Source: Escherichia coli (GTDB lineage Bacteria > Pseudomonadota > Gammaproteobacteria > Enterobacterales > Enterobacteriaceae). From it: a stretch of 64,000 nucleotides of DNA. The first letter of the stretch is position 1. The number at the start of each line of letters is the position of its first letter. A program made the translations under genes and the position numbers. Below the pieces are notes generated by a model that ran no database searches, had not been told where the DNA came from, and saw nothing but the letters and a program-made list of their open reading frames with translations. Where the stretch lies: the NCBI RefSeq assembly GCF_001677475.2, contig NZ_CP015229.1; one strand, 5' to 3'. This document shows, one piece after another, positions 22,644 through 47,789 of the stretch.

Positions 22644-23710
22644 AATTGTGCATTCCTGTCAGCTGAAGGGGCATCTTCTGGCAACAGCTTTTCCGTAGCG
22701 GCAATGACATCTTCCGCTGGAATAACAGAAAGATATTTTTTGTTGCGGTCAAGTTCGTGCCGGGTAGGCATTTTTTGATAATTCCCCGCCCAGAACTGAA
22801 TAATATTCTCGGTCCATGGACGCCAGAATACATGATCAGTAGCCCCAAACAGGCTAATAACTGGCGTGTTCACCGCCGCCGCAATATGCCCCGGCGCAGA
22901 ATCCACACCAATAAAGAGCACTGCATGATCAATTAATGCGCCCAGTTCAGGAAAACGTGTTTTACCGGCAAGGCCGGTAATAGGTTTTGTTTGGCAGCCT
23001 CGTGCAATTTCATCTACGCAAGCGAGATCATCTGCCGAAGGGCCACAAGTCAGCACAACCTGATAACCACGATGTTGCAACGCATCGATAACCATAGAAA
23101 ATTTATCGTTATCCCAGCACTTAAATAGCTGTCGGGCTGTCGGCTGGATGACGACATAATGATCTTTCACGCCCAGTGCATCTAATTCCTGGCGCATTTT
23201 CTTCCAGCAATCATCAGCATAACTCATTGTTGTTTCAGTATAAAAATCGGTAATACCTAATGACTCAAGGACCGACAAATTACGCTCAACAATATGTGTA
23301 CCGTGTATAGGCGCTAAGTGTGTAAAGCTTTTTTTCCAAATGCCATGCTGCCGATGAGCATAAAGCTGCGATATTTTCATCCGTGCAGGTAAACAACGTA
23401 CCAGCAGGGCCACCATCCACTGATCCGTAAGATTAATGACCAGGTCGTAATTATTCGCACGCAGAGTTTTTATCAGTGAAAGTGCATTTTTAATTTTATC
23501 GAATGTTCCCGCACCTTTATTGCTTATACCATAGAGTGCATTAATTTCTGGGTTTTCAGATAAAATCGGAATTGTATCCTGGTAAAGCAGCATATCGATT
23601 TTAGCATTGGGATAATTCTGCTTGAGTGTACTGATTACAGGAGTAGTTAATAACATATCTCCGTGATATCGCATCTTTATGACCAGGATTTTTCGAAATG
23701 GCTTTTCCAC
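22640..23710 (-). CDS. waaQ: LPS heptosyltransferase III (GT9)
   Basis: ORF from GTG at 23710 (356 aa) or internal Met at 23674 (344 aa); N-terminus ILVIKMRYHGDMLLTTP aligns with WaaC/WaaF N-termini. Confidence 0.85.
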   Translation of the reverse strand: MEKPFRKILVIKMRYHGDMLLTTPVISTLKQNYPNAKIDMLLYQDTIPILSENPEINALYGISNKGAGTFDKIKNALSLIKTLRANNYDLVINLTDQWMVALLVRCLPARMKISQLYAHRQHGIWKKSFTHLAPIHGTHIVERNLSVLESLGITDFYTETTMSYADDCWKKMRQELDALGVKDHYVVIQPTARQLFKCWDNDKFSMVIDALQHRGYQVVLTCGPSADDLACVDEIARGCQTKPITGLAGKTRFPELGALIDHAVLFIGVDSAPGHIAAAVNTPVISLFGATDHVFWRPWTENIIQFWAGNYQKMPTRHELDRNKKYLSVIPAEDVIAATEKLLPEDAPSADRNAQL

Positions 23711-23757
23711 TAGCGACTCTTTTGTGTGATTGTCTGGTTAAGTTAAGCAGAAAAAAG

Positions 23758-23769
23758 CACGCTACCGCC
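23758..23769 (-). promoter_or_regulatory. ops element (RfaH recruitment site) in the waaQ operon leader
   Basis: Minus strand reads GGCGGTAGCGTG, matching the ops consensus GGCGGTAGnnTG, about 50-85 nt upstream of the waaQ start. Confidence 0.8.
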
Positions 23770-24114
23770 CCAGGCTCAACAGCTACCCGAATACTGATAA
23801 CGCACTTACTTTGACGCGCTAGTGTATCATTTCTTTCGCAGCAATCCGACCCGAATGATTTTTATACACAAAATATGATTTAACCATAAAAATCATATAG
23901 ATAAAATTTTGCATACAGAGAATCCAGATATTGTCTATGTAAAGTTGCAATCCTGGCTGAAATTCAATGAATCGCATAAAAATACAAAAAAATGAAGATT
24001 TAGCAGCAGATCAGCTCAAACAGAGACTATTTAAGTCAAAAACGGGAAAAGTAATGGTAAAGCCACAGCTAAATACATAGAATCCCCAGCACATCCATAA
24101 GTCAGCTATTTACT

Positions 24115-25879
<1,765 letters not shown>

Positions 25880-47751: not shown

Positions 47752-47762
47752 AAATCAATCTC

Positions 47763-47789
47763 GCCGGGTACGACTCAGACGTACCCGGC
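47763..47789. terminator. bidirectional hairpin between convergent yicH and yicI
   Basis: Perfect 9 bp stem GCCGGGTAC/GTACCCGGC with 9 nt loop; modest T-run on the minus side. Confidence 0.45.

Follow-up and report, generated by a model that had tools for sequence, protein, structure and literature searches.

An ops/JUMPstart element with an exact ops sequence in the 5' leader of the Escherichia coli waaQ operon

Introduction

In several systems, RNA polymerase is made resistant to termination over a long operon by a cis-acting 5' leader signal. Examples include N-nut and Q-qut of phage lambda, the put RNA of HK022, the Nus complex of rrn, LoaP, and EAR RNA. The ops/RfaH system shares this logic, but RfaH, which is a paralog of NusG, reads the non-template DNA in a paused complex. 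In contrast, the signal is read as nascent RNA for nut, put, and EAR, and at the promoter for qut.

While the complex is paused, ops forms a small hairpin in the non-template DNA (with a C3:G8 pair), and T6 is flipped into a pocket of the N-terminal domain of RfaH (PMC5995543). G4, G5, A7, and G8 are essential for the recruitment of RfaH, and T11-G12 cause the pause (PMC5995543). The JUMPstart operons rfb/wzx, kps, hly, and tra depend on RfaH, as do operons of the waaQ type. For the rfa/waaQ operon, RfaH-dependent antitermination from a single ops in the leader has been demonstrated experimentally in E. coli K-12 and in the uropathogenic strain CFT073 (PMC9765446, PMC5995543). For both strains, the data include ChIP of RfaH and traveling ratios of RNA polymerase (PMC9765446). 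In CFT073, the ChIP signal for RfaH begins at this single leader ops of rfa, and in the delta-rfaH strain the occupancy of RNA polymerase 5.4 kb downstream falls to 0.1-0.34 of wild type or less (PMC9765446). All of the RfaH targets in CFT073 are coated by H-NS/StpA (PMC9765446).

The leader also has a second described role. In K-12, its 5' part is annotated as rirA, which encodes a 73-nt RNA whose 5' end is common to the waaQ mRNA. RirA binds RfaH together with RNA polymerase in an ops-dependent manner, and overexpression of RirA mimics delta-rfaH (PMC5736990, PMC6358824, PMC8745692).

Here we describe the corresponding region in a 64-kb stretch of E. coli DNA ("the window"; all positions below refer to it unless another genome is named). 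The region is almost certainly the promoter and the 104-nt 5' leader of the waaQ lipopolysaccharide (LPS) core operon, with RfaH boarding at the ops/JUMPstart. Our analysis shows the sequence, position, strand, family membership, and conservation of the element; for the binding of RfaH, the pause, antitermination, and the activity of RirA, we draw on publications about orthologous loci. (The rfaH gene itself lies outside the window.)

Results

The waaQ-waaA region

The ops element lies between two divergent genes, waaQ and waaA. The features that we refer to are:

13814-23710 (-): the waaQ operon, about 10 kb, waaQ-G-P-S-B-O-J-Y-Z-U, a gene set of the K-12 core type
22640-23710 (-): waaQ (rfaQ), heptosyltransferase III, 356 amino acids from a GTG start, by open reading frame and annotation of the closest genome
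23711-23757 (-): distal leader, 47 nt; AAAGAG (23722-23717), a weak Shine-Dalgarno-like site, is 6 nt ahead of the GTG
23751-23757 (-): C followed by a T6 tract, directly after ops, as read in the sequence
23758-23769 (-): ops element GGCGGTAGCGTG, an exact match, with G1 at 23769, the pause position T11 at 23759, and G12 at 23758
23758-23796 (-): JUMPstart, 39 nt (Rfam RF01707), with ops as its 3' end
23771-23789 (-): 5-bp stem of JUMPstart, with arms 23789-23785 (CGGGU) and 23775-23771 (GCCUG) and a 9-nt loop; ops is the single-stranded 3' tail
23796-23807 (-): conserved segment AAGUGCGUUAUC, which can pair with 23766-23755 to form an outer stem around the JUMPstart hairpin
23742-23814 (-): homolog of rirA (the 5' part of the waaQ leader), a 73-nt RfaH-interacting RNA in K-12; 72/73 identity
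23821-23849 (-): probable waaQ promoter, with an extended -10 of TGaTACACT (23829-23821) and TCGGAT (23849-23844) 17 nt upstream
24055-24083 (+): candidate waaA promoter TGGTAA-17-TAGAAT, with TGGTAA at 24055-24060 and TAGAAT at 24078-24083
24115-25392 (+): waaA (Kdo transferase), divergent from waaQ, by open reading frame and annotation

Given the GTG of waaQ at 23710 and the start of waaA at 24115, which are supported by the open reading frames and by PGAP, the first-pass annotation had correctly delimited the spacer between the two genes (23711-24114, 404 bp). The GC content of waaL and the waaQ operon (12000-24000) is 33-43%, versus 50-55% in the flanks. Low GC is what would be expected for LPS core genes that are exchanged horizontally and bound by H-NS, and it fits with the RfaH targets being H-NS-bound.

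The locus is orthologous to the waaQ locus of K-12, with the same promoter and the same gene order (the waaQ operon is divergent from waaA-coaD). The ops, the T-tract, and the distal leader are identical to those of K-12. The differences are a single nucleotide in rirA, the center of the spacer (about 83% identical), and the annotated start of waaQ, which is GTG here and in PGAP annotations but a downstream ATG in the MG1655 record.

The start codon of waaQ

In its annotations of K-12 BW2952 and of the closest complete genome, PGAP starts waaQ at the GTG that is at 23710 here. In the MG1655 record, waaQ starts at an ATG 36 nt downstream (position 23674 in the window), which gives a protein of 344 amino acids. 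We favor the GTG because the profile for RfaQ (NCBIfam equivalog NF007742; 676 bits) aligns from the first residue (residues 1-350 on profile positions 1-350) and because AAAGAG-N6-GTG is conserved across genera. (The alignment to the heptosyltransferase-III profile begins at residue 7.) No longer reading frame for waaQ is possible: the frame is closed by a TAA that precedes the GTG by 10 codons, and the GTG is the first possible start after this stop. Reviews describe the waaQ operon as lacking a ribosome-binding site. AAAGAG is a weak site, so this is not a contradiction.

The promoter and the leader

The probable 5' end of the leader comes from comparison to K-12. In MG1655, rirA (b4760) is annotated as a 73-nt ncRNA at 3808238..3808166 (-). 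In the window, 23814..23742 (-) is at the syntenic position and is identical to rirA at 72 of 73 nucleotides. The only difference is A to G at 23788, which changes an A-U pair in the JUMPstart stem to G-U. Given the annotation of rirA in K-12 and the conservation of the promoter, transcription of waaQ probably starts at about 23814. The extended -10 ends 6 nt ahead of the annotated 5' end of rirA, and 9 genera share both TGnTACACT and TCGGAT. We assign the waaQ promoter of this strain by homology.

A generic scan for promoters and terminators did not pick up the waaQ promoter, because its -35 is weak. (The scan gave one weak match on the plus strand, at 23880-23907, which did not exceed the expectation from shuffled sequences.) We also considered the hexamers that were predicted for the waaQ-waaA spacer from SELEX (PMC3946193), but these are in the non-conserved center and do not fit the annotated 5' end of rirA, and we left them aside.

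With a start at 23814, the leader is 104 nt long (up to the GTG at 23710). The ops would occupy +46 to +57 of the transcript, with 45 nt between it and the start. It lies on the waaQ strand in the untranslated leader, 47 nt before the GTG. This distance falls within the 40-67 nt that were reported between ops and the start codon in the wzx, kps, and rfa leaders (PMC9765446). The sense strand of waaQ is the non-template strand, which fits with a role for RfaH because its recruitment requires ops to be on that strand.

An exact ops sequence

In a motif scan of the 64-kb window, 23769..23758 on the minus strand was GGCGGTAGCGTG, with 0 mismatches to ops. The first-pass annotation had claimed an exact match at 23758-23769 (-), and we read the same letters. 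The sequence satisfies the 12-nt consensus for ops (GGCGGTAGnnTG), and all of the critical bases (C3, G4, G5, T6, A7, G8, T11, and G12) are present (see PMC5995543 for the roles of these bases). Nothing else in the window matches either the exact 12-mer or the degenerate consensus GGCGGTAGNNTG.

How surprising is such a match? In 100 dinucleotide shuffles of the 64-kb window, the chance expectation for GGCGGTAGNNTG was 0.08 matches per window, and a match was present in 8 of the shuffles. By itself, the 12-mer is only modestly improbable. We consider the match to be more than chance because of its context (the complete JUMPstart and the locus), not because of the rarity of the 12-mer.

The 8-mer GGCGGTAG occurs 4 times in the window, versus 1.07 expected. 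We rejected the other three occurrences (28830 (+), 34657 (-), and 43027 (-)) as ops sites: they are intragenic and lack T11-G12. Similarly, a 12-mer with 1 mismatch (22277-22288 (+)) was rejected, as it is antisense within waaG and a critical base is altered (G5A).

A full JUMPstart

The first-pass annotation had proposed a scan for the full 39-bp JUMPstart, and this was positive. The Rfam covariance model RF01707 matches 39 nt at 23796..23758 (-), with a score of 53.1 bits (the gathering score is 35) and E = 2.6e-9. The alignment is full-length (model positions 1-38 of 38), and the 10-gene waaQ LPS-core operon follows directly.

Across the 22 waaQ leaders described below, 97% of cells in the JUMPstart stem are paired. 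One pair (columns 28-44) is A-U in 15 leaders, G-U in 6 (including the one in this window), and G-C in 1. In Kluyvera, a U-G pair is changed to C-G and a G-C pair is changed to G-U. This provides modest support for the stem being maintained by compensatory change, with a two-sided change in a single pair.

The JUMPstarts of rfb/wzx, kps, hly, and tra that belong to RF01707 have the same arrangement: a 5-bp hairpin and then GGGGCGGTAGCGTG, on the sense strand, in a long leader. Compared to the family consensus, the loop in JUMPstarts of the waaQ type is longer by one U, and AGG/GGG-CCU takes the place of UGG-CCA. Right behind ops, leaders of the waaQ type have a tract of 5-8 T, and they share a conserved 5' segment (AAGUGCGnUAUC); the rfb leader has neither.

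Conservation in E. coli and in other genera

Within E. coli, the leader is conserved but the adjacent spacer is not. Of 5,426 complete E. coli genomes, 5,422 carry the 88 nt that comprise the -10 and rirA at an identity of at least 90%. In contrast, the central 201 nt of the spacer are just 60-80% identical in 3,880 complete genomes and are undetectable in about 586. A three-way alignment of the spacer has the same pattern: an invariant block near waaA, a variable AT-rich center, and a conserved promoter and leader.

To compare species, we scanned one genome per species for ops plus CTTTT. This yielded 56 loci. In 22 of them, the site is in a waaQ leader: waaQ follows after 47-49 nt, and waaA is divergent. 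These 22 are from Escherichia species, Citrobacter, Salmonella arizonae and diarizonae, Kluyvera, Pluralibacter, Cedecea, Silvania, and Intestinirhabdus. The ops, the hairpin, the T-tract, and the context of the start codon are retained in these 22 leaders from about 9 genera. Thus, beyond E. coli, the waaQ leaders of eight or more other genera of enterobacteria have kept the element. (The tract after ops has 5-8 T in 22/22 leaders, but 4 of those T were imposed by the search pattern.) All 16 of the waaQ leaders that we tested passed the threshold of RF01707 (35.4-55.2 bits), and 0 of 17 matches to ops plus CTTTT outside of waaQ did.

Some of the loci outside of waaQ have the ops-like sequence GGGGCGGTAGCGTGCTTTT in what appear to be intergenic regions: two in Serratia, two in Vreelandella, and two in Billgrantia and Halomonas. 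Their flanks are conserved within each genus, and they failed the JUMPstart model. They may be RfaH/ops sites that lack the JUMPstart hairpin.

RNA 3' ends in the leader

Adams et al. (2021) mapped 3' ends in MG1655 by Term-seq. On the minus strand, in the waaQ leader, they reported a 3' end at 3808184 (62,669 reads; LB, OD600 0.4) and, in a second growth condition, at 3808183 (116,952 reads). For the end at 3808184, they gave a Rho score of 1.04 and an intrinsic-terminator score of 6.28, and noted no regulatory element. In our mapping, these ends are at transcript positions 55/56, which are G10/U11 of ops (23760/23759 in the window), and coincide with the pause site of ops as established biochemically. 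Across three conditions in K-12, Term-seq had no end at nucleotide 73, which is the annotated 3' end of RirA. The JUMPstart of the K-12 rfb leader behaves like that of waaQ: it also has a 3' end at G10 of ops (2113139, minus strand), and no U-tract follows the rfb ops.

A predicted outer hairpin

In the RNA of the leader, AAGUGCGUUAUC (23807-23796) is predicted to pair with GGUAGCGUGCUU (23766-23755, which is G4-G12 of ops plus CUU), and U-rich sequence follows. This outer stem is present in the minimum free energy (MFE) fold, the centroid fold, and the RNAalifold consensus. Across the 22 leaders, it is 91.6% paired; in the shuffle control the result was 179/500, with an invariant 3' arm. The predicted nested hairpin contains four G-U pairs and ends in GUGC, followed by U6. 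The z-scores for folding range from -1.3 to -2.6.

Other explanations for the element

We considered four other explanations for the element. Could the ops be a functionless chance match in intergenic DNA? The shuffles do produce a match to GGCGGTAGNNTG in 8 cases out of 100, and the other three GGCGGTAG 8-mers are inside genes. But this explanation does not account for the full match to the JUMPstart model (E = 2.6e-9), for the position being syntenic with rirA of K-12, or for the element being near-universal in E. coli and retained in other genera while the adjacent spacer diverged. We give it practically no chance of being correct; as judged from sequence comparisons, conservation and family membership already rule it out. 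We also consider it vanishingly unlikely that ops is inside the coding sequence of waaQ, with the true start farther upstream. Apart from the disagreement between annotations (with the ATG in MG1655 being 36 nt downstream of the GTG), nothing favors this. The in-frame TAA makes the GTG at 23710 the first possible start, the alignment to the RfaQ profile already includes residue 1, different genera share the GTG together with AAAGAG, and ops is upstream of both of the published starts. The first-pass annotation had named a motif within the waaQ coding sequence as the outcome that would overturn its reading, and the reading frame settles this in its favor.

The other two explanations concern the RNA. 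In one, the element is chiefly the gene for a trans-acting sRNA, RirA, that titrates RfaH, and ops acts at the DNA level only secondarily. It is true that rirA is annotated at the homologous position in K-12, that RirA binds RfaH with RNA polymerase in an ops-dependent way, and that overexpressing it mimics delta-rfaH. However, the phenotypes of RirA derive from overexpression, its annotated 3' end at 73 nt was not detected by Term-seq, and ChIP and biochemistry show that ops acts in cis via the non-template DNA (PMC9765446, PMC5995543). We think that the RNA-first explanation is very unlikely. The two roles are not exclusive, as the role of RirA RNA would be an additional layer and not a replacement for the DNA role of ops. 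In the other explanation, the leader is an attenuator: the AAGUGCGUUAUC:GGUAGCGUGCUU outer stem and U6 would form an intrinsic terminator, so that unmodified polymerase stops (giving short RNAs that resemble RirA) and RfaH-modified polymerase reads through. Both the MFE and the centroid structure are this nested hairpin, and it was recovered independently in the RNAalifold consensus. Of further note, the outer stem is 91.6% paired in the 22 leaders, with several one-sided changes that maintain pairing; the 5' arm is nearly invariant even though it is outside of JUMPstart; the T-tract exceeds what the search pattern required in every leader; and the 3' end in the K-12 leader has an intrinsic-terminator score of 6.28 with a Rho score of 1.04 (Adams et al.). 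On the other hand, the 3' arm is invariant, so covariation is untestable and the shuffle control (179/500) is uninformative. Of the 22 leaders, 16 lack the pair of columns 16-54, the z-scores are modest (-1.3 to -2.6), the search pattern forced CTTTT, and the terminator scan found no terminator. Furthermore, Term-seq in three conditions places the 3' ends solely at G10/U11 of ops, with none in the U-tract or beyond it. The rfb leader gives the same end at G10 with neither a U-tract nor a matching 5' arm, and because of this comparison we downgraded the attenuator, which we now consider unlikely. We are similarly doubtful about a related proposal: that ops RNA in waaQ leaders is sequestered in the outer hairpin, forming an RfaH-sensitive attenuator with the U-tract, and, relatedly, that the abundant leader RNA in vivo is a species of 55/56 nt with its 3' end at the ops pause, instead of the 73-nt RirA.

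We found no evidence that contradicts the model of a waaQ leader with RfaH boarding at ops in the data that we gathered. By every feature that can be assessed from its sequence, the element is an already known one: it is the ortholog of the K-12 waaQ leader and belongs to the ops and JUMPstart family. The first-pass annotation had proposed that ops is a recruitment signal for RfaH in the waaQ leader. This is supported by the full JUMPstart, by its position in a transcribed but untranslated region, and by the RfaH dependence in K-12 and CFT073 (PMC9765446, PMC5995543).

The waaA promoter and the center of the spacer

The divergent geometry requires a promoter for waaA in or near the spacer. The TAGAAT of our candidate is 31 nt upstream of the ATG of waaA. 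The 85 bp before this ATG are strongly conserved across genera, and the sole variable patch is inside the 17-nt spacer between the hexamers. Also, the sigma-70 holoenzyme binds the waaQ-waaA spacer in genomic SELEX, as does H-NS (PMC3946193). It is plausible that the spacer contains the waaA promoter, as the first-pass annotation had stated: the geometry, the conserved TGGTAA-17-TAGAAT on the plus strand, and the SELEX results for sigma-70 all fit.

The spacer is a mosaic. Its center (23830-24030) is at least 99% identical to just one complete E. coli genome. It is about 83% identical to K-12, and elsewhere it is 60-80% identical or absent, with the flanking leader and the waaA-proximal block being near-universal. 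The center is similar to the one in Escherichia sp. MOD1-EC7003, where waaQ has an identity of just 71%. This suggests recombination breakpoints that adjoin the conserved leader.

Amid this variable AT-rich sequence, Escherichia, Citrobacter, Salmonella, and Pluralibacter share a conserved 29-bp block (TCAATGAATCGCATAAAAATACAAAAAAA, 23964-23992 (+)). There are no convincing promoter hexamers in it, and it may be the binding site of a regulator. A 52-codon open reading frame (23819-23977 (-)) starts in this block and ends at a TAG inside the -10 of waaQ. It has 52-54 codons in six lineages of Escherichia, despite many substitutions and one in-frame indel, but it is broken in the majority type of E. 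coli spacer, in Escherichia E1V33, and in all of the other genera. Therefore, it is probably not a gene.

Other parts of the window

Over the waa region, the closest genome is NZ_CP116067.1 (98.7% identity over 33 kb). This genome has an insertion of about 7 kb between yicH and yicI, with PTS-fructose, aldolase, and BglG-family genes, which is missing here (at about 47755-47780). In the window, waaL (O-antigen ligase, 421 amino acids) is intact at 12523-13788 (+). For the waaL stretch, the annotation of the closest RefSeq genome is limited to two short hypothetical CDSs, both on the opposite strand.

Farther along, selC (tRNA-Sec) is at 51807-51897 (+), followed by an AT-rich island (51900-64000). 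The E. coli genomes that match best, at an identity of only 97.2%, have the island annotated with eilA (a HilA-family regulator), setC, a needle-tip protein of the IpaD/SipD family, and a translocon subunit of the YopB/SipB family. Going by these annotations, it is the selC-linked eip/eilA island that is associated with type III secretion.

Discussion

If this leader works like its orthologs, then RNA polymerase would start at about 23814, from the extended -10, and transcribe the JUMPstart. It would pause 56 nt into the transcript, at U11 of ops (23759). During this pause, the DNA of the non-template strand (GGCGGTAGCGTG) would fold into a small hairpin, with C3 paired to G8 and T6 flipped out, and the N-terminal domain of RfaH would read this hairpin. 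RfaH would then open and ride with the polymerase across the roughly 10-kb AT-rich operon, with NusG excluded. While bound to the polymerase, it would suppress pausing as well as termination that is assisted by Rho or H-NS, and it would recruit the ribosome to the weak start site of waaQ, 47 nt downstream. The leader RNA (RirA in K-12) could also bind RfaH together with RNA polymerase, and an excess of it would lower the activity of RfaH. If either the attenuator or the 55/56-nt species were real, each would revise the origin of this RirA feedback loop.

The identification is also useful for annotation. Except for MG1655, RefSeq records carry nothing under this leader, and the calls for the start codon of waaQ conflict. 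The biology at the orthologous loci of K-12 and uropathogenic E. coli has been established for decades, and what we find here is the standard arrangement, confirmed in this strain. The element would explain how a roughly 10-kb, AT-rich, and H-NS-prone operon for the LPS core is transcribed in full, which matters for the integrity of the outer membrane and for virulence.
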